In this document: one piece after another, positions 11,307 to 26,456 of the stretch
Layout: every line of letters starts with the position of its first letter
Numbering within the stretch: the first letter of the stretch is position 1
IMG/VR virus record: IMGVR_UViG_2585427793_000015
Span: 1 to 28,857 of that record
Direction: 5' to 3' (one strand)
Length of the DNA stretch: 28,857 nt
DNA from: a virus
Taxonomy: Duplodnaviria > Heunggongvirae > Uroviricota > Caudoviricetes
The notes under the pieces: generated by a model
What the model was told of the DNA's origin: nothing
What the model saw: only the letters and a program-made list of their open reading frames with translations
Databases searched by the model: none
Made by a program: the position numbers and the translations under genes

Positions 11307-11617
11307 CAGCCTTTCTCCGCTTCCCGGACAATCAGATTCGGTTCAGCCATCAGGCGGGTGGCAACCGCAGCGGTCACCGCCACATCCTCACCGGCATGTG
11401 ACCAGAAACGGCCACAGCGCCAGAACCCGTTTTCAGACACGGCCCGGACGTTCAGCCGGACAGGGGCGTCACCCTGTACAGCAGCCGGGGCTTCAGCCGG
11501 ACGTGGTTCATTCGCCTGACCGTCAGCCACAATAACGTCTGCCAGCGGTGCCGGGTTTTCCTGTGCTGCGCTGTTCTTTGCGGCTTTCGCGCCTTTGGTT
11601 CCTGCTTTTTCACTCAT
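11306..11617 (-). CDS. Hypothetical head-associated protein (Mu gp35 position)
   Basis: 103-aa ORF with an Ala/Pro-rich N-terminus, immediately after the major head gene and its downstream hairpins. Confidence 0.45.
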   Translation of the reverse strand: MSEKAGTKGAKAAKNSAAQENPAPLADVIVADGQANEPRPAEAPAAVQGDAPVRLNVRAVSENGFWRCGRFWSHAGEDVAVTAAVATRLMAEPNLIVREAEKG

Positions 11618-11621
11618 GACT

Positions 11622-11670
11622 CTGCCTTTTAAAAGGCAGTTAAAAGGGCATTCACAGCGCCTTTTAACTG
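11622..11670 (-). terminator. Stem-loops downstream of the major head gene (attenuator-like)
   Basis: Perfect 18-bp palindrome CTGCCTTTTAAAAGGCAG (11622-11639) overlapping an inverted repeat CAGTTAAAAGG-N12-CCTTTTAACTG (11637-11670), in the 78-bp gap after the T stop; only a short T4 tract follows. Confidence 0.45.
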
Positions 11671-11695
11671 CGGGTTACAGATTACGGATGACGGG

Positions 11696-12598
11696 TTATG
11701 CCGGGGTGGTGATGAACGGACTGACCACGATGTCCACATCCTTGTACCAGATGTTGGAATCGCCGCCGTTAACCAGCATGGCGTCAATGATGCGCTTCGC
11801 GGCTGCACGGTTTTTCGGCCCCACCACAAGGGTGGTCGGGCGGATGCCCAGCGGTTCACCGTTGGTAGCCTTCATACCCAGCAGCAGATTGCTGGCCTTC
11901 TCGTAGTTCTCCGCTGTCAGTGCCGCACGGGAACCGACGGCGGTCTGCCAGAAGCCGAAGCCCGCATTGCAGCGACCGTCCACCCCGTAAAGGAACTCGT
12001 TATTCTTGAAGGTGTGCTCGCTGTTCAGATCATCCAGGGCTTCAAACTTAAAGGCGCGTCGCGTCTGCCAGATGATGGGTTTCAGTACCTGAGAATCATC
12101 AATCAGGAACCACGGTTCTCCCTGGTCTGATGCCGGGGTGCCGACAACGTTGCTGCAGGTGCCGTCGCCCAGCGGGTGGTCTTCATCAAAGAAGTTCTGA
12201 CCGTCAAAACACAGGGTGTTAAACCCGGCACACAGCAGGGGGTAACACAGCTTGTCCGGGAACTCCGACGTCTGGCGGCCATAGCGTTCAGCGATAATGC
12301 TGTACTGACCAATCTGATCGTCTTCAATGTGTTCGCGTTTAACGCGGATCGAACTTTCCCAGGTTTTGTTCGCAAGGGTGTAACCATAACCGTCCAGCGT
12401 TGCCATCTGACGGGCGCTGACCCATTCTTTAATCTCCGGTAAATCCTTCATCCAGCCGTAGGTATTGGAGGCGGACGAACTCGGGATTTCAGAGGCGATA
12501 CGCTGCCACTGTGGGGTGACACCACTCAGACCACGGGTATAAGCGGCGCTCAGACAGGTGGTCAGCGCGTGAAGGACTTCGGAAGTGACTGCTCCCAT
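11696..12598 (-). CDS. Major head subunit (Mu gpT-like)
   Basis: 300-aa ORF directly after the protease/scaffold gene (1-nt overlap); followed by stem-loops, as often seen after major capsid genes. Confidence 0.85.
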   Translation of the reverse strand: MGAVTSEVLHALTTCLSAAYTRGLSGVTPQWQRIASEIPSSSASNTYGWMKDLPEIKEWVSARQMATLDGYGYTLANKTWESSIRVKREHIEDDQIGQYSIIAERYGRQTSEFPDKLCYPLLCAGFNTLCFDGQNFFDEDHPLGDGTCSNVVGTPASDQGEPWFLIDDSQVLKPIIWQTRRAFKFEALDDLNSEHTFKNNEFLYGVDGRCNAGFGFWQTAVGSRAALTAENYEKASNLLLGMKATNGEPLGIRPTTLVVGPKNRAAAKRIIDAMLVNGGDSNIWYKDVDIVVSPFITTPA

Positions 12599-13560
12599 CA
12601 GTTATTCTCCTGTTTTGGTTTAGCGGCGAGGAACTCTTCCCCGGTAATACCCATGCTGCGGCACATCGCCAGTTCGGCGTCGGTCAGTGTCTGCACGGGT
12701 TTATCCTTGCCCTGGCTGGGCTTGTCGTTGTTCACCAGCGGCTGTGCACCTCTGGTGTACTCCGCAAACTGTTTGCGGCCTTCTTCCGTACGGCAGGTGG
12801 CAAGGAACATGTCACGGTTTGCCGGGGCCACTTTTCCGGCTTCGATGGCCGCATCCACAAGCGCTTCTGCTTCCTTCTCTTCCAGTTGCTGAAGGCGTTG
12901 TTCTGCGGTTTCGGCACGGTTCAGTGCCAGATTGTGGGTTTCCACCGGCACAAACTTCGTCAGGTCAGGTGTCTGTGCGCGGTTCAGCGCCACCTGTTCG
13001 TTCTCCTGAAGTTGTTTAATGGCAGCCACGGTATCGTCCACCGTGGCGGATTCAGCCAGCCCAAGCAGGCCGGTGATTTGCACAGGTACTGTCATCGGGT
13101 TTTTCTCCGTATTCAGTGCAGGAAAATCCAGGTTAGGTTTATTGGTCAGCCCGACGCTGGACAGGCGTGTCACCGCACCGTCCGCGTCAAAGAAAAACGC
13201 CGGGCTGTAATAGCGGTAGCGGCGCTCGCTCAGCATCCACCGGGCGGACTCACTCCAGACAACACGGCCTTCAATGGTGCTGCTGTCCGTCACCCGCAGT
13301 TCTTCCACCCAGCCATACGCCGGAGCATCTTCCCCCCGCGGGCCTTTAATTTCGGTGGCGTGTTCAATGTCCACCGGAATTTTGATGTCGGACGAACGGG
13401 CAACCACCTCATGTGGATTGCGGTTAATCCACGTCCGGCCATCGCGCCCGGTGAACTCACCCGCAGGGACGAGTTCAAGCCATTCCGGCAGTTGAGCGGG
13501 TGTCAGCTCATTGATGGGTTCTGGCAGGGAAAAACACAGCGCCAGCAGTTCCGGTTGCAT
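12598..13560 (-). CDS. Head maturation protease / scaffold (Mu gpI/Z-like)
   Basis: 320-aa ORF with an N-terminal Mu I protease-like region and a C-terminal coiled-coil-like scaffold region; precedes the major head gene. Confidence 0.8.
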   Translation of the reverse strand: MQPELLALCFSLPEPINELTPAQLPEWLELVPAGEFTGRDGRTWINRNPHEVVARSSDIKIPVDIEHATEIKGPRGEDAPAYGWVEELRVTDSSTIEGRVVWSESARWMLSERRYRYYSPAFFFDADGAVTRLSSVGLTNKPNLDFPALNTEKNPMTVPVQITGLLGLAESATVDDTVAAIKQLQENEQVALNRAQTPDLTKFVPVETHNLALNRAETAEQRLQQLEEKEAEALVDAAIEAGKVAPANRDMFLATCRTEEGRKQFAEYTRGAQPLVNNDKPSQGKDKPVQTLTDAELAMCRSMGITGEEFLAAKPKQENN

Positions 13561-13582
13561 GTCAGTCTCCGTCGTTTGGGGT

Positions 13583-13597
13583 TACTGACGGTCAGTA
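13583..13597 (-). promoter_or_regulatory. Palindrome TACTGAC-G-GTCAGTA in the protease I leader
   Basis: Perfect 7-bp arms, ~25 nt upstream of the I start codon. Confidence 0.35.
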
Positions 13598-13609
13598 TGC
13601 GGAAGGCAG

Positions 13610-13633
13610 AAAAAAAGCCGGATTTACCGGCTT
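13610..13633 (-). promoter_or_regulatory. Conserved dyad element AAGCCGG-N5-CCGGCTT plus T7 run, copy 2 (upstream of protease I)
   Basis: Near-identical ~40-bp sequence to copy 1 (CA.TGAAGCCGGTAAATCCGGCTTTTTTT.TGCCT.CG); centred ~64 bp upstream of the I start. Confidence 0.6.
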
Positions 13634-13656
13634 CACTGAAAACGGGAAGAATACCC

Positions 13657-13697
13657 CCTTCAAAACCCCTTCAAAAACGCCACAGCGCCTTCAAAAA
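13657..13697. repeat. Three direct repeats of CCTTCAAAA(A) in the F-I intergenic region
   Basis: Copies at 13657-13665, 13668-13677 and 13688-13697 within a 190-bp non-coding gap. Confidence 0.6.
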
Positions 13698-13750
13698 CGT
13701 CAGAATGCACATTCACGCCATCAGAATAAAAAACGCGTTTCTGATGCATT

Positions 13751-14539
13751 TCAGGGGGATTTACGGCGGGGGGGGTATTCACTGTCAAAACGGGCCTGTT
13801 TTGTCGCCAGCTGGCGCGCCAGCTCCTGCTCACGGTTTATGCCGGGATTGTAGTTCCAGCCCGGATCAATCCCTTCCGGCACATCTTCCTCTTCGCCCGT
13901 GCGTTTGTTCACCCAGCGGACAGTTCTGATTTCCGGCGCTTCGGTGTGAATGGTGCTCTGTGCCGCCAGTTGCGCATATTCACCACGGCTGACCTGACGG
14001 ATGGTGCATTTGCAGCCCCAGCCGTTAGGGGCAAAATGCGTCTGCCAGAACGGATGATCTACCGGCAGACACAGACGCGCCCATTTCACATGCTCCGCCC
14101 GGTGCTCGCGGGATGGCCCCAGCTCGTAAATCAGATACGGCATGGCCCGTTTTGTCCGCTGAATGCGTTCCCACTGGCCCGCTGCGCGGGCGGTGCGCAT
14201 GTTGGTATCAAAAATCGTGCGGAGGCGGCGGTCGCTGCCCAGCTGTACGGTGCGCGTTTCTCCTGTCAGCGGATCATCCATCTCCTGTACGCCCCACCAT
14301 CCGCGTTTTATCAGCAGCGGTTGCAGCGCCTCCCGGAACTCACTGAACGTCTGCCCGCTTTGCAGGGCGTCTTCCACAAGGGCTTTCACATCCGACAACA
14401 AATCCAGTTGCAGCATTTTTGCCACGGTGAAGCTGTTCCGGTGTTCTTCCCGCCACACATCCCGGTAATCAAAACCGGGGCGCAGCTTCTTCGCCTTCAG
14501 CCACGCCAGCGCCTCTTTCGGGATGAGGGTTTCACGCAT
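13751..14539 (-). CDS. Head morphogenesis protein, Mu F-like (SPP1 gp7 family)
   Basis: Start set to the internal ATG at 14539 (MRETLIPKE...), which overlaps the portal stop as ATGCGTGA; contains an NGWGCKCT motif characteristic of the Mu F / SPP1 gp7 family. Confidence 0.8.
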   Translation of the reverse strand: MRETLIPKEALAWLKAKKLRPGFDYRDVWREEHRNSFTVAKMLQLDLLSDVKALVEDALQSGQTFSEFREALQPLLIKRGWWGVQEMDDPLTGETRTVQLGSDRRLRTIFDTNMRTARAAGQWERIQRTKRAMPYLIYELGPSREHRAEHVKWARLCLPVDHPFWQTHFAPNGWGCKCTIRQVSRGEYAQLAAQSTIHTEAPEIRTVRWVNKRTGEEEDVPEGIDPGWNYNPGINREQELARQLATKQARFDSEYPPRRKSP

Positions 14540-16103
14540 GAGCAGTGTCTCCCAGTGCTCGCGCCTTAAAGCACACCTCTGCCAGTTGCAGGGCAAAGTC
14601 GTCCGCGTTCAGCGTTTCCTGAAGCTCAGGCAGGCGTTTCAGAAAGTCATCAAAACTGTCGCATTCCTGCGCCAGTGTCAGCACCGGGTTCGTGAACGCC
14701 TCGCCGGTTTTCTGCCAGTCACGCAGGGCATCATCCACCATCTGTGCCAGTTCGTCGGGGTGTTCCCGGTTCAGGGCGACGCGCTCACGGTTCATCGCCA
14801 TATCACCTGGCACCCCGGCGGACACCGGATGCAGAACATCAGCCCCGTCGTCCGGTTCAGCCAGGCCGAACCGGTCCCGCAGCTCCGATTCCTGAACCCG
14901 CAGCCCCCGGTCAATCAGCGGCACCAGAGCATCTGTCAGCGCCTTCAGATCTTCTGCTTCACTGATACGCAGAACAACGCGGGGATAGTGCGCCTGTGGC
15001 CCGTAGTTGGCCTCGATGTAGGGCCGCACCAGATATTCATTCAGCGTGTTAGCCAGCTGCCGCGCGTCCCAGCGCACAATGTCCATGCGCACCTGATTGT
15101 GCACGTCCGCCTGTGAACGCGAACTGCCGTTATCCGTGGTCATGGTCTGCCCCAGCACAGCCTTACTGATTTGCGCATCACACCATTCCGCCATTTCACG
15201 GAACAGTGCGCCGCCGTTATTCCGGCTGGCGGTTTCCTGCATCTCCAGTTGCATGGACTGCGGAATGGCACACCCGGCATCCGAGGCAATGGACGCAATC
15301 GCGTCAATCAGTACGCGGATTTGCTCCTCCGTGGCGTTGGGACCGTATTTCCCTACCGTAACCGGAATGCCGAACTTTTCCGCAAATGCCCACCAGTCGC
15401 GCACGGTAAAGGATTTCAGCATGTACATTACCGCCACCAGACGGGCCAGACCGTTACGCAGCGGCAGACCGGATTTCAGACGCGGCTGGTGAACAATGAA
15501 TTTTCCCGGTGTCAGCGGTACGCCATCCACCGGCTCATCGTCAGTCAGCAGGCGGAACTGGCGCAGCGTGGGCTTTTCGGCTTTCAGAAAACGGGGATCA
15601 ACCCACTCATAATCACGGGGCACCCAGTGGTTGTTGCGGGTGTTCCAGAGAATTTCACAGACCGCCACACCTTTTCCCAGCCCGTCGAGCAAGTCAAACA
15701 ACAGTTCGGGAATTTGCGGAGCGTCCATCAGCGCCCGGATGGCGTCCGCCAGCTGCACGTCGGCATCGTCATCACTGGCGGCAACCACCACCGGTTCGAT
15801 ACCGGCTACCGTCAGCTTGCGGGTGCGCAACACCGAAGCGTAATGCAAATCGCGTTCTTCCATCTCTTCGGCAAGGATAAAAAAATCACGTGTGATGCCG
15901 TCGGCGGCATTGCGCAGAATACCTGCCAGCCTGCCGGGATTCAGCCCGGAAGCGATACTGATGCCCGGCGAGGCCGAGCGCACCCCCGCCTGACGCGGAC
16001 GGGCCTGTACTTCATCGAGCCTCTCTTTTTTCAGCGTATCTTCCTCACCGGTTGCCGGGTTCAGCAGACGGCGAACGGCTCCGGCCAGTTGTTTCAGGTT
16101 CAC
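14532..16103 (-). CDS. Portal protein (Mu gp29 H-like)
   Basis: 523-aa ORF, ATGA overlap with the terminase large subunit stop; size and synteny. Confidence 0.8.
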   Translation of the reverse strand: MNLKQLAGAVRRLLNPATGEEDTLKKERLDEVQARPRQAGVRSASPGISIASGLNPGRLAGILRNAADGITRDFFILAEEMEERDLHYASVLRTRKLTVAGIEPVVVAASDDDADVQLADAIRALMDAPQIPELLFDLLDGLGKGVAVCEILWNTRNNHWVPRDYEWVDPRFLKAEKPTLRQFRLLTDDEPVDGVPLTPGKFIVHQPRLKSGLPLRNGLARLVAVMYMLKSFTVRDWWAFAEKFGIPVTVGKYGPNATEEQIRVLIDAIASIASDAGCAIPQSMQLEMQETASRNNGGALFREMAEWCDAQISKAVLGQTMTTDNGSSRSQADVHNQVRMDIVRWDARQLANTLNEYLVRPYIEANYGPQAHYPRVVLRISEAEDLKALTDALVPLIDRGLRVQESELRDRFGLAEPDDGADVLHPVSAGVPGDMAMNRERVALNREHPDELAQMVDDALRDWQKTGEAFTNPVLTLAQECDSFDDFLKRLPELQETLNADDFALQLAEVCFKARALGDTAHA

Positions 16104-17635: not shown

Positions 17636-18213
17636 GCGCTAATCCCCAGAAGTTCACGTTTGATGGTGTCAGCCGCACCACCTGACAGACCGCCCGTTCT
17701 GACCAGTTCTTCGGTTTTCTCTGCCATCTCCTGCGCAAACGCATCGCGGATCGCTTTCTCGCGTTTATGGCTGGGCATGGCTGCCGCTTCCAGACGCTGG
17801 GCAACCAGCGCCAGTTGGCCCAGCGCCTTCGGTGCAACGGGCTTGTCGTCTTCTGCCATCGACATGGACGTTTCAAAGGCCAGCGTTTTTACAAACTCCA
17901 TCAGCAGCTTGCCGACGTCTGATGTTGGCGCGGAACCCAGCTTTGCCGCCCAGACCTCGGCCATCTCGCGGGAGGCGCGGATTTTGGCCCCGACTTTTTC
18001 CATACGGCTGGCATAGCGGTTTAAGCCCGTCCGGCTTAACTGCATCTCTTCCGGCAGGTTGTGTTCGTCAATCAGGGCGTTGATGGCTTCGCGGATTTCT
18101 TCCTGCGTGTGCCGCTTTTCCCGCAGCATCTGATGTAACTGCTCCCGGATGCTGTCCGGGAGTAAATCCACTTTGGAAAGACGGCCACGGGTGGGGCGTT
18201 GTTCATTTTCCAT
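17632..18213 (-). CDS. Mu gp27-like protein (candidate terminase small subunit)
   Basis: 193-aa ORF, ATGA-coupled to the terminase large subunit; basic N-terminus (MENEQRPTRGRLSKVDLLPDSIREQL) consistent with a DNA-binding N-terminal domain. Confidence 0.55.
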   Translation of the reverse strand: MENEQRPTRGRLSKVDLLPDSIREQLHQMLREKRHTQEEIREAINALIDEHNLPEEMQLSRTGLNRYASRMEKVGAKIRASREMAEVWAAKLGSAPTSDVGKLLMEFVKTLAFETSMSMAEDDKPVAPKALGQLALVAQRLEAAAMPSHKREKAIRDAFAQEMAEKTEELVRTGGLSGGAADTIKRELLGISA

Positions 18214-20533: not shown

Positions 20534-21130
20534 TCACCCCCGCGTGGCGGACATGATGCCTAAAGGGGTATCGATGATTTCCAGACAGGCGTCGGTCAGC
20601 TTTTCCATGCGGTTAAACCAGCCGTTCAGGTATTTACCCTGGGCGGGTTTTGACTTGATGATGTCGGCATAAAAGCGGGAACGACGGACAATGCAGCGGG
20701 CCAGCAACCAGTCCGGGGTGGACAGACTCACGGCCTTACGGGTACGCGGGCCGATGATGCCGTCAGCATCCACATCAGCGGCTTCCTGCAAAATCCTGAT
20801 AGCTTTTTTAACGCCATGCTGAACGGCTGCATCGAACACAAAGATCGCCACGCCATCAGGCCACTGATCACATCCGGCAGGCAGCCAGTAATCGCGCCAG
20901 TAAATCTGCGCGACCTGTTCGCGGGTTAAATCCCTGATGCGGGTATCCGGTTTACCGTCGCCGCTGACATCGGTTTTGCCGTCAATCACACCGTCGCGGC
21001 GGTCAGAAATGCCGTATTTGGTTTCGCCGCCACGGTCAGTGGGGTCATTGACATAGACGCCTTCGATATCGGGACGCTGAATAAAATTCAGCGCATGTTC
21101 AAAGGCCGGGGAGAATTTTTGATTTTCCAT
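20534..21130 (-). CDS. Endolysin, glycoside hydrolase family 108-like with peptidoglycan-binding C-terminal region
   Basis: 198-aa ORF with an N-terminal EGVYVNDPTDRGGETKYGIS motif (GH108 consensus EGGYVNDP.D.GG.T..GIT) and C-terminal DG.IGP.T pattern; first gene after the intergenic hairpin/T-run element. Confidence 0.8.
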   Translation of the reverse strand: MENQKFSPAFEHALNFIQRPDIEGVYVNDPTDRGGETKYGISDRRDGVIDGKTDVSGDGKPDTRIRDLTREQVAQIYWRDYWLPAGCDQWPDGVAIFVFDAAVQHGVKKAIRILQEAADVDADGIIGPRTRKAVSLSTPDWLLARCIVRRSRFYADIIKSKPAQGKYLNGWFNRMEKLTDACLEIIDTPLGIMSATRG

Positions 21131-21141
21131 AAAAGCACCTG

Positions 21142-21170
21142 TGAAGCAGATTTAAACGTGGTCTGCTTCA
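21142..21170 (-). promoter_or_regulatory. Inverted repeat TGAAGCAGA-N11-TCTGCTTCA in the endolysin leader
   Basis: Perfect 9-bp arms, 12-40 nt upstream of the endolysin ATG. Confidence 0.4.
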
Positions 21171-21185
21171 TAGTGCCGGAGGCAT

Positions 21186-21209
21186 AAAAAAAGCCGGATT
21201 TACCGGCTT
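21186..21209 (-). promoter_or_regulatory. Conserved dyad element AAGCCGG-N5-CCGGCTT plus T7 run, copy 1 (upstream of the endolysin)
   Basis: Perfect 7-bp inverted repeat with a 5-nt loop, followed on the minus strand by TTTTTTT; centred ~70 bp upstream of the endolysin ATG. Either a Rho-independent terminator closing the early operon or an activator site of a late promoter, or both. Confidence 0.6.
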
Positions 21210-21229
21210 CATTGAATTAAAAAAGATGA

Positions 21230-21709
21230 CTACTCATCACCTTTGATGGAGCAATCTATCATCATATTTTTCCCCATAGGGAGAAACTTTGTCTGAATGT
21301 GAAAGCCCAGAATCTTATACGTTAGTCCGTAACCTTTAACTTTTGCTGCGGAAGCCACCATGTCAATAACTCGTTCCTGCTGTTCTTCAGTTAATTGACC
21401 AATTACAGATTCAACAACCCGCGAACATGCAGCAAAGGAGGGCAGAGCGCCTACAGGATTATCATCAAAATCTTTTACAGTCGTCGTTGAACTAACGACC
21501 TTATTATTAATCATAAACAATCCAAACTTGCTGTGAGCAGTTTCGGTTCCACCGTTCTTAATTGAATCGCCCCCTTTAAGAGGCTTCCAGCTATTTAGTG
21601 CAATGAGGTCTTTTTCGGCCAGGCGTTTTTTGATTACCTCTTCAGAGGGCAGCTTTGCCGCATTAGCGCAAAATACGCTCAGTAAAAACATAAGAGGAAA
21701 GTATTTCAT
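21230..21709 (-). CDS. Secreted/periplasmic hypothetical protein (moron; occupies the position of Mu C)
   Basis: 159-aa ORF with a classic signal peptide (MKYFPLMFLLSVFCANA/AKLP); visibly AT-rich; start overlaps the mor stop as ATGA. Confidence 0.6.
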   Translation of the reverse strand: MKYFPLMFLLSVFCANAAKLPSEEVIKKRLAEKDLIALNSWKPLKGGDSIKNGGTETAHSKFGLFMINNKVVSSTTTVKDFDDNPVGALPSFAACSRVVESVIGQLTEEQQERVIDMVASAAKVKGYGLTYKILGFHIQTKFLPMGKNMMIDCSIKGDE

Positions 21710-22116
21710 GGCTCATCCTTAAATAGTTGCATTTGATATTTTCCACGCTCCAGCCTTCGCATTCTTTTGATGGCCTGATATACCGTTTTGTAGGTCACTT
21801 TGTAACGCTGCACCAACTCTGCTACGTTTTTTCCATCAAAATCACGCCAGATGCGCATGTCTCTGATCAGATTTTCCAGTATTTTCCCTTTCGGAACATA
21901 TACCTGAATCCCTCCGATATGATTGCAAATTGCCACTACCAGCTCAAGAGAGTGGGCAGGGTTAACACCAAGCCTTATCAGTTCCTGTCGCAGCAGAGCA
22001 TTCAGCTCTGAAAGTAGCGCCGGGTAAACATATTTTTCCTGATAATCGTGAAGATATTCCAGAACACTGTCGTCCCGGAAGTCTTCGAATAAATCCTGCT
22101 CTTTCATCTGTTTCAT
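21706..22116 (-). CDS. mor: Mor/C-family transcriptional activator
   Basis: 136-aa ORF with a C-terminal Mor/C-type HTH region (GGIQVYVPKG...IRDMRIWRDFDGKNVAELVQRYKVTYKTVYQAIKRM); ATGA-coupled to the gemA-like gene as in Mu. Confidence 0.8.
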   Translation of the reverse strand: MKQMKEQDLFEDFRDDSVLEYLHDYQEKYVYPALLSELNALLRQELIRLGVNPAHSLELVVAICNHIGGIQVYVPKGKILENLIRDMRIWRDFDGKNVAELVQRYKVTYKTVYQAIKRMRRLERGKYQMQLFKDEP

Positions 22117-25505: not shown

Positions 25506-26456
25506 CTACCAGTTCAGTAATTTAGGGTTGCTGTAAGCCTCCTTAAAAGCCGCCTTAATGTGACTTTTATTCAGGGATGAACCGGCACCTTTCGCCGCCA
25601 GCCACGCATGATTCAGTGTGTGAGTCAATACACGCAATCCCCCGGGCTTTTCGGCTACCCTCATCAGCAGGTCCAGCTCATCTTCCTGTGTTACTCCCCA
25701 TGCTTTGGCTACAGCCATCACATCAGTCTTTTTCACTTTGCGCAGTTGTTTTGTCATGGCAAAACGGCTGAACAGACGGGCCAGTTCATCAGTCCCACGA
25801 CGGGTGGCATCCGCCATCTGTTTCGGGTTGCCAATTAAAACCATCCCCACGCCAGTGGCATCCTGAATGGCGCGTAATTGCTCCAGACCATCCACACTTA
25901 AGTGATCAGCTTCATCAATAATCAGCAGGGGGTTAACACGTCCACTGGTTTCTTTTCCACCGCCCAGTTTTCTGCGAATGGCGCGGGTTATATTCCCCTT
26001 ATTTCTTCCCGGATTATTAATTTCCAGCGCATATGCTACTTCAAGGAGGCATTCCGTTACGCTCGAATGTGCCGGAGCAAGAGTCACCATCCAGGCATTA
26101 GCTGTTTTGCGGCAATATTCCCGGGCAGCAAAGGTTTTTCCGACACCCGGTACGCCAACAACGACACTGATAATCCCGAGTGAGCGCACTGTTTTAAACA
26201 GCTCATGCAAATCACAAAATGTCTGGGTCTTCACAACGCCGGGGGCACCTGACAAATTCTGCCCTTTCTGCCATACCCGATACCATTCCTGTAATTTGTC
26301 ATACATGCCTTCAACATTGCCTCTGTACTTTCCTTTGCGAAGATCAGAGAGAGTTGCCGGAGACATTCCGGCTTCATCAGCAATATCTTCCTGAGACTTG
26401 TCGCCCTCGTTAATCAAAGCGTTAATAGTGTTGAAAACATCATCAATATCAGTCAT
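25506..26456 (-). CDS. B: DNA transposition ATPase B (MuB-like, AAA+)
   Basis: 316-aa ORF with an N-terminal HTH region, Walker A (GVPGVGKT) and Walker B (LLIIDEADHL); GGAGG ribosome-binding site 8 nt upstream; follows the transposase gene. Confidence 0.9.
   Translation of the reverse strand: MTDIDDVFNTINALINEGDKSQEDIADEAGMSPATLSDLRKGKYRGNVEGMYDKLQEWYRVWQKGQNLSGAPGVVKTQTFCDLHELFKTVRSLGIISVVVGVPGVGKTFAAREYCRKTANAWMVTLAPAHSSVTECLLEVAYALEINNPGRNKGNITRAIRRKLGGGKETSGRVNPLLIIDEADHLSVDGLEQLRAIQDATGVGMVLIGNPKQMADATRRGTDELARLFSRFAMTKQLRKVKKTDVMAVAKAWGVTQEDELDLLMRVAEKPGGLRVLTHTLNHAWLAAKGAGSSLNKSHIKAAFKEAYSNPKLLNW

Follow-up and report, generated by a model that had tools for sequence, protein, structure and literature searches.

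Introduction

What is encoded in the one long non-coding interval that separates two late genes, F and I, of a Mu-like prophage of Escherichia coli? The window analyzed here, a 28,857-nucleotide stretch of this prophage, carries every gene on the minus strand, in the order Ner-like, transposase A, B, GemA, a Mor-family activator, a 159-amino-acid open reading frame, endolysin (lys, 20534-21130), terminase, portal, F, the gap, protease I, major head protein T, and tail genes. Read from the F stop to the I start, the gap runs from 13750 down to 13561 and is bordered by two genes:

13751-14596, minus strand: F gene, MuF-type minor head protein (Pfam Phage_Mu_F, PHROG 220)
12598-13560, minus strand: I gene, Mu-type head protease/scaffold, which opens the downstream late operon (Pfam Mu-like_Pro, PHROG 328)

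An earlier note on this DNA had described the gap as the sole large non-coding interval among the late genes, had listed several repeats and palindromes in it, and had proposed that it is the counterpart of the central region of Mu that holds the late promoter PI and the strong gyrase site (SGS). No other spacer of the late region is as long as the gap (the sister prophage has 214 bp here; the next largest spacer is 86 bp), the listed motifs are all present where the note placed them, and both halves of the proposed correspondence hold at the level of sequence. We consider it likely from the comparisons presented below that the gap is a composite, in which a homologue of the Mu-type gyrase site and a Pm-type late promoter lie side by side.

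Results and Discussion

Genomic context of the F-I spacer

Of 5426 complete E. coli genomes, 49 contain the region around the gap at 95% identity or more, each in no more than three copies. The prophage of strain TD225-C4 spans 33,780 bp and is inserted in rlmB with a GATAT duplication. The prophage ends could be delineated in L001 (4500-4700 and 38190-38279), where the target duplication in rlmB is GATAT and repeated ATTTGATAC motifs are present that are presumably transposase sites. The right end reads ...GCGCGCTTTA in L001, compared to ...CA in Mu.

The length of the spacer differs between the window and its relatives because of a single codon. Comparison with L001 shows that relatives have a TAA stop at the site equivalent to 13775-13777, which is TAC in the window. 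This change extends F by eight codons (YPPRRKSP, 13751-13777) and leaves a spacer of 190 bp instead of 214 bp; judging from this comparison, 214 bp is the ancestral length. The homologue of Mu gene G is located elsewhere in the phage genome and not between F and I.

A probable Mor-type late promoter precedes gene I

The part of the gap nearest to I contains a promoter cassette, a second copy of which lies before the endolysin gene. The features involved are as follows:

13622-13637, minus strand: Mor-type activator site AGTGA-AGCCGG-TAAAT, at -51 to -36 by analogy with Pm
13610-13634, minus strand: terminator-like hairpin GAAGCCGG-TAAAT-CCGGCTT followed by T7 (dG -12.8 kcal/mol, z -2.8)
13594-13599, minus strand: -10 hexamer CATACT, separated from the Mor site by 22 nt, the spacing of Mu Pm
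21170-21213, minus strand: second promoter cassette, before the endolysin gene (AATGAAGCCGGTAAAT, hairpin/T7, 22 nt, CACTAT)
21706-22116, minus strand: Mor orthologue (Pfam Mor); the prophage has no other Mor/C-family gene

A dyad with a T-run (GAAGCCGGTAAATCCGGC-T7, 13634-13610) recurs exactly at 21210-21186. This element had been listed among the components of the putative gyrase region; its presence and recurrence are confirmed, and it belongs to the promoter cassette, with the form of a terminator, rather than to the gyrase site. In Mu, the Mor site occupies -51 to -36 and is built from a pair of 5-bp inverted repeats flanking a G/C-rich hexamer, with its center at -43.5 (PMC4287176, PMC4390567). 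Using the published -57G and -54A, we located the Mu site as AGTAA-AGCCGG-TTAAT, to which the 16-mer in the gap is identical at 14 of 16 positions. The spacer sequences are CAGTAAAGCCGGTTAATCCGGCTTTTTTT in Mu mor-E18, CAGTGAAGCCGGTAAATCCGGCTTTTTTT in the gap, and CAATGAAGCCGGTAAATCCGGCTTTTTTT before lys, and the gap cassette as a whole matches Mu Pm at approximately 27 of 29 positions. Exact copies of the Mor 16-mer occur in the prophage only in the gap and before lys.

Neither cassette has a strong -10 hexamer (CATACT in the gap, CACTAT before lys). There is no -35 hexamer, and a generic sigma-70 scan returned no -35/-10 pair at this location. By analogy with Pm, transcription is predicted to start near 13586. 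The -10 block, CCGCATACTGAC, matches CCGCAAACTGAC of Mu PI, and within it A.ACTG.C is invariant in an alignment of six phages that includes Mu PI. No C site (TTAT-N5-6-ATAA) is present at the gap; the aligned position in the six-phage alignment holds the Mor site. As far as sequence goes, the suggestion that PI lies here holds for the -10 block and not for the activator site, which is of the Mor/Pm type and not of the C type. We are highly confident in the assignment of a Mor-type promoter.

The cassette is invariant in 18 close relatives. More distantly related phages (L024, Kp4866-3, and ECONIH4) retain the Mor-type 16-mer and the -10 block and have lost the hairpin and T-run, indicating that the constant feature is the activator site. 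The hairpin has an 8-bp stem, a 5-nt loop, and U7 on the coding strand, which fits the form of an intrinsic terminator; the Mor-site spacer forms its left stem, and the right Mor half-site its loop. Across these phages, the hairpin is therefore an optional overlay on the activator site. The corresponding hairpin at Mu Pm is, we assume, the early terminator t9.2; a search for t9.2 found nothing. The marine relatives Shewanella MuM16-2 and Vibrio martha have a site of their own that is common to their lys and I spacers, and they follow the same logic with that site.

[quoted passage not shown]

The promoter/terminator cassette is the best-supported part of the gap. The gap might be a terminator/promoter junction only, with the T-tract repeats upstream of the cassette serving as curved DNA that modulates the I promoter or persisting as inherited sequence without a present role, and in neither case having any particular connection with gyrase. 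The repeats, however, lie at -76 to -111, which is beyond the reach of Mor or an UP element, and mutations upstream of -57 in Mu Pm were without effect (PMC4390567).

The annotation of the Mu reference (NC_000929) places the gyrase cut at 17879/17880, inside the 196-bp G-I spacer. Alignment to the G-I/SGS region had been suggested in the earlier note, and it shows the two spacers to be collinear, with a global score of 127 (dinucleotide shuffles score 74 ± 7, and 0 of 500 score as high). [quoted passage not shown] This is the best match on either strand of the window (next best 37, mean 18.4, sd 3.9), and its score was equalled by none of 2000 shuffles of the gap. Alignments in the same register are obtained for Kp4866-3 (45/75) and L024 (40/75). 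The arm is free of indels in the six-phage alignment; the left flank of the gap has indels relative to Mu. The resulting assignments are the following:

13636-13710, minus strand: homologue of the Mu SGS right arm with four T-tracts, 45/75 ungapped identity to Mu
13657-13696, minus strand: three direct repeats that read (G)TTTT(T)GAAGG on the coding strand, with spacings of 20 and 11 bp
13703-13714, minus strand: predicted gyrase core GAAT/GTGC/ATTC (bars after GAAT and GTGC), placed by the register of the ungapped arm alignment

The three direct repeats to which the earlier note drew attention are T-tracts 1-3 of this right arm. They contain CCTTCAAAA at 13657, 13668, and 13688, its only copies in the 28.9-kb window (chance expectation 0.25; three or more copies in 0 of 100 shuffles). 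Measured from the predicted axis, the T-tract centers are at +13.5, +33.5, +45, and +68, in agreement within 1.5 bp with the Mu offsets of +12, +33.5, +46.5, and +68. In an exploratory run with 27 parameter sets, the gap ranks first to third in the window for periodicity of A3/T3 tracts at 10.5-11 bp. It is not exceptional in the window for phasing of AA/TT or WW dinucleotides, so that only the tract-based measure stands out. The strongest AA/TT or WW periodicity at 10.5-11 bp is located at 11581-11683, in the spacer between T and the next gene, and at 25534-25617, near the start of gene B, rather than in the F-I gap.

The position of the site also corresponds to that in Mu. Of the 33,780 bp of the prophage, 16.09 kb (47.6%) lie to the left of the predicted gyrase site, compared to 48.7% for the Mu cut, and the site adjoins gene I and its late promoter on their upstream side, as the Mu SGS does.

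The core of the site is different in this respect. By the register of the right arm, the equivalent of the Mu cut falls between 13711 and 13710. Only 4 of the first 13 nt match Mu here; the sequence of the predicted core is not conserved, and it is where close relatives vary most. We also counted matches to a published 133-nt gyrase consensus, an uninformative proxy that gives z = 3.3 for the Mu SGS itself and 4.0-4.5 for unrelated coding DNA; by this measure the gap is outside the top 10. The unconserved core and the unremarkable proxy score can both be put in favor of a gap that is only a junction. The same can be said of the Mu replacement experiments, in which few of the substitutes tested for the SGS worked and most gyrase sites tried in its place failed to support Mu replication (review, PMC10052514).

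The right arm is retained in different genetic contexts

The distribution of the arm among phages provides additional evidence on this point. A true Mu-type prophage in E. coli TUM9757 (L035 2470-2660) has F, G, and I genes of Mu size, and its G-I spacer combines a Mu-type core (ATAAAATCA) with an arm of the window type (95.7% identity over 46 nt) and a C-dependent PI of the Mu type. In this chimera, the window-type arm sits exactly at the position of the Mu SGS arm. The arm is thus a module at that position, whatever the flanking genes or promoter type, and the chimera suggests that it may have been exchanged between otherwise different Mu-like phages.

The arm motif GCGTTTTTRAASGNGNTTTRAASG is present in 84 IMG/VR contigs, mostly of 29-37 kb. 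In 60 of 77 sequences (76 of these contigs and the window), an I-type gene in the same orientation begins 44-207 nt downstream (median 132 nt). Of 57 distinct arms, 48 carry the first repeat in register; the search pattern had placed no constraint on this repeat. Six relatives (L042, L049, L054, L066, L069, and L073, all from IMG/VR) keep the arm and have other DNA, apparently an extra gene, before the expected I. A search of one genome per species with the I protein yielded only three distant loci.

In seven IMG/VR contigs of high GC content (L052, L058, L080, L082, L093, L101, and L111), the AT-rich GCGTTTTTAAACG.GGTTTAAACG is almost unchanged. No I-type gene was found in these contigs within 330 nt downstream with two queries.

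These distributions speak against a junction alone. The register of the arm is free of indels across phages with Mor-type or C-type promoters, the arm is joined to a Mu-type core in TUM9757, and it is kept in the six relatives in which other DNA parts it from I. We consider it unlikely that the gap is a junction and nothing else. Common descent of the arm with the Mu SGS arm seems to us very likely. That the arm is also a working strong gyrase site is somewhat less certain and, by analogy with Mu, on balance probable.

The repeats, with the family consensus TTTTTRAASG, could instead be arrayed binding sites at which a sequence-specific protein organizes the prophage or regulates the late genes independently of gyrase. 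We know of no protein that binds the arm repeats; candidates would be nucleoid proteins of the host, for instance Fis or IHF, or one made by the phage itself. The conservation of the repeats exceeds that expected for generic A-tract phasing, with GCGTTTTTRAASGNGNTTTRAASG kept even in high-GC lineages, and domain formation by the Mu prophage requires IHF, Fis, and HU in addition to the SGS (PMC3820752). On the other hand, the Mu segment homologous to the repeats is the experimentally defined right arm of the gyrase site (PMC10052514, PMC6379681), the sequence of the repeats drifts between lineages (AAAC vs GAAG) while their spacing is kept, and they show no resemblance to the ATTTGATAC repeats of the prophage ends. 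We find this explanation improbable, and more so than that of a simple junction.

It is extremely improbable that the gap is the remnant of a decayed gene (for example, the 3' end of a lost G) or a small RNA or peptide gene: a block in its left flank, CATCAGAAACGCGT, matches the 3' end of Mu G, a 27-codon ATG open reading frame is present at 13749-13666 in the window, and a long plus-strand frame spans the gap, but G has its homologue elsewhere in the phage, the ATG is ACG in 18 of 18 relatives, and neither an Rfam family nor an internal sigma-70-like promoter was found in the gap. A small open reading frame or known RNA family was rejected on the basis of the ACG start in relatives and the empty Rfam result. 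The plus-strand frame, of 347 codons (12886-13929), runs antisense through I, the gap, and F, and was rejected as spurious because close relatives contain 1-nt indels in it.

Inverted repeats in the left flank and the I leader

Besides the terminator-like hairpin, the spacer includes the following inverted repeats:

13719-13746, minus strand: inverted repeat CATCAGAA-N12-TTCTGATG in the left flank, containing the block CATCAGAAACGCGT
13583-13597, minus strand: palindrome TACTGAC-C-GTCAGTA, overlapping the -10 hexamer and the predicted start
13569-13591, minus strand: CCGTC(G)-N12-(C)GACGG, a conserved inverted repeat that begins directly behind the -10 hexamer, ahead of the start codon

The first two had been noted previously, and both are present; neither shows evidence of selection. 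The block within the post-F repeat is shared with Mu, where it reads CATCAGAAAACGCGT at the 3' end of gene G. The potential hairpin folds weakly in the window (z -1.2 to -1.7), lacks a fold signal across 50 distinct relatives (median z -0.21), and has uncompensated changes in two close relatives, L006 and L018. We rejected it as a conserved structure on these grounds, and the inverted repeat is probably not a selected hairpin. The TACTGAC palindrome is intact only in the window and L022. Since it is broken in 17 of 18 close relatives, which have G at 13586, we rejected it as an operator.

The substitution that breaks the palindrome lengthens the third repeat, CCGTCG/CGACGG, whose 3' arm overlaps the Shine-Dalgarno sequence GGAG (13567-13570). 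The median fold z of this repeat is -2.0 in 15 distinct relative segments, and pairing is retained in 79.5% of cells, compared to 9-51% for slid controls, with only two compensatory changes. RNAalifold predicted no pairs for eight I leaders, which is attributable to a shift in helix register between lineages. The 5' arm is upstream of the predicted transcription start and would be present only on read-through RNA; the repeat may therefore occlude the ribosome site only on read-through transcripts.

Regulatory cascade and proposed mechanism

The activator gene of this prophage is most similar to mor. Its product shares 60% identity with Mu Mor (E 9e-58), as against 32% with Mu C. No C gene was found in the prophage, according to the annotation of the sister prophage and the 32% identity to C of its sole Mor/C gene. 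The Mor orthologue is the presumed activator of both cassettes. Because the lys spacer (21170-21229) itself carries a Pm-type cassette, the phage appears to be without a middle operon and without a C gene, and with Mor and no C the cascade would run from early genes to Mor to late genes. The late genes thus look Mor-driven, in a two-step cascade. Such an arrangement would represent a rewiring of Mu-type regulation, as the promoter position before I is a C site in Mu and a Mor site here. For annotation purposes, the F-I spacer and the lys spacer can be labelled candidate Mor-dependent late promoters.

Two further observations concern the activator and its sites. The C-terminus of the Mor orthologue, ...KYQMQLFKDEP, is nearer to QPDLF of Mu C than to QPSLL of Mu Mor. 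QPDLF is the C-terminal clamp-binding motif of Mu C (PMC12867686), and the tail is suggestive of Mor acting as a late activator. A candidate third Mor-type site, AGGGAAAACGGTAAAT, with TATTAT after 23 nt, is present at 2599-2643 on the minus strand. The site falls within the baseplate-V gene, with the next gene about 120 nt further on, and could be the counterpart of PP, the third late promoter of Mu.

On the basis of these comparisons, which establish homology, register, copy number, geometry, location in the prophage, and occurrence among phages, we propose a mechanism in which gyrase binding and cleavage, activation by Mor, and termination are inferred. By analogy with Mu, the right arm of the gyrase-site homologue (the homologue as a whole being 13714-13636, minus strand) would wrap around a GyrA C-terminal domain, and gyrase would supercoil processively from the center of the prophage, bringing both ends together for replicative transposition. 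Gyrase at the center of Mu helps the prophage ends to synapse (PMC10052514, PMC3820752, PMC6379681). A Mor dimer would bind AGTGA-AGCCGG-TAAAT, centered at about -43.5, and recruit sigma-70 RNA polymerase to CATACT. Transcription of the I operon, which encodes head and tail proteins, would then start near 13586, with the promoter region extending over 13637-13586, and the second cassette would drive the operon from lysis to F. The hairpin with T7 that overlaps the Mor site would probably terminate the upstream operon. Further background on the SGS, Mor, and C is given in PMC2582627, beside PMC10052514, PMC3820752, PMC6379681, PMC4287176, and PMC4390567.

A broader interpretation, which we offer tentatively and regard as doubtful, is that the right arm is a discrete, portable module with the sequence-specific consensus GCGTTTTTRAASGNGNTTTRAASG and a third repeat 20 nt upstream, combined in this phage with late genes that run directly from duplicated Pm cassettes under a single Mor. 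If the arm is indeed portable and kept even in high-GC hosts, this would mean that its sequence is recognized, rather than its generic bendability, perhaps by the GyrA C-terminal domain or by a partner protein.

Comparison with known systems

No gyrase site stronger than the Mu SGS has been studied; it is the standard substrate in single-molecule and cryo-EM work on gyrase, and what makes its right arm special is still debated. Together with the gap, 57 distinct natural variants of the arm in an indel-free register provide a comparative set for the features that gyrase needs, and these variants are suited to the existing Mu replacement assay. The repeats can be annotated as a candidate central gyrase site.

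Like the Mu SGS, the site described here is central and directly upstream of I and its promoter, its arm faces I, and its four T-tracts are at matching distances from the axis, within an ungapped alignment of 45/75 identity. The differences from Mu are an unconserved core and cleavage sequence, a repeat unit of TTTTTGAAGG in place of TTTTTAAAAC, and a shorter left flank that follows F rather than G, because gene G sits elsewhere in this phage. Central gyrase sites of other Mu-like prophages follow the same principle, a gyrase site at the center of a transposable prophage; Oram and Pato (2004) reportedly studied such sites, the present lineage not being among those tested. The gyrase sites of pSC101, pBR322, and BIMEs have no sequence in common with the gap and did not substitute for the Mu SGS.

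The promoter shares with Mu Pm a 16-bp imperfect dyad (14/16), an overlapping hairpin with T7, a distance of 22 nt to a weak -10 hexamer, the lack of a -35 hexamer, and a cognate activator that is 60% identical to Mor. Unlike Mu Pm, which serves the middle operon that encodes C, the cassette is present here in at least two copies and would drive late operons, for lysis/packaging and for head/tail. With Mu PI it shares the position ahead of I and a homologous -10 block, CCGCA(A/T)ACTGAC, whereas the C site of PI is replaced by a Mor-type site in a prophage without a C gene. The SGS, Pm with Mor, and PI are all known already, and the locus is a further example of the Mu type. What distinguishes it from the known kind would be the placement of late operons on duplicated Pm cassettes and a right arm that is both conserved and exchangeable.
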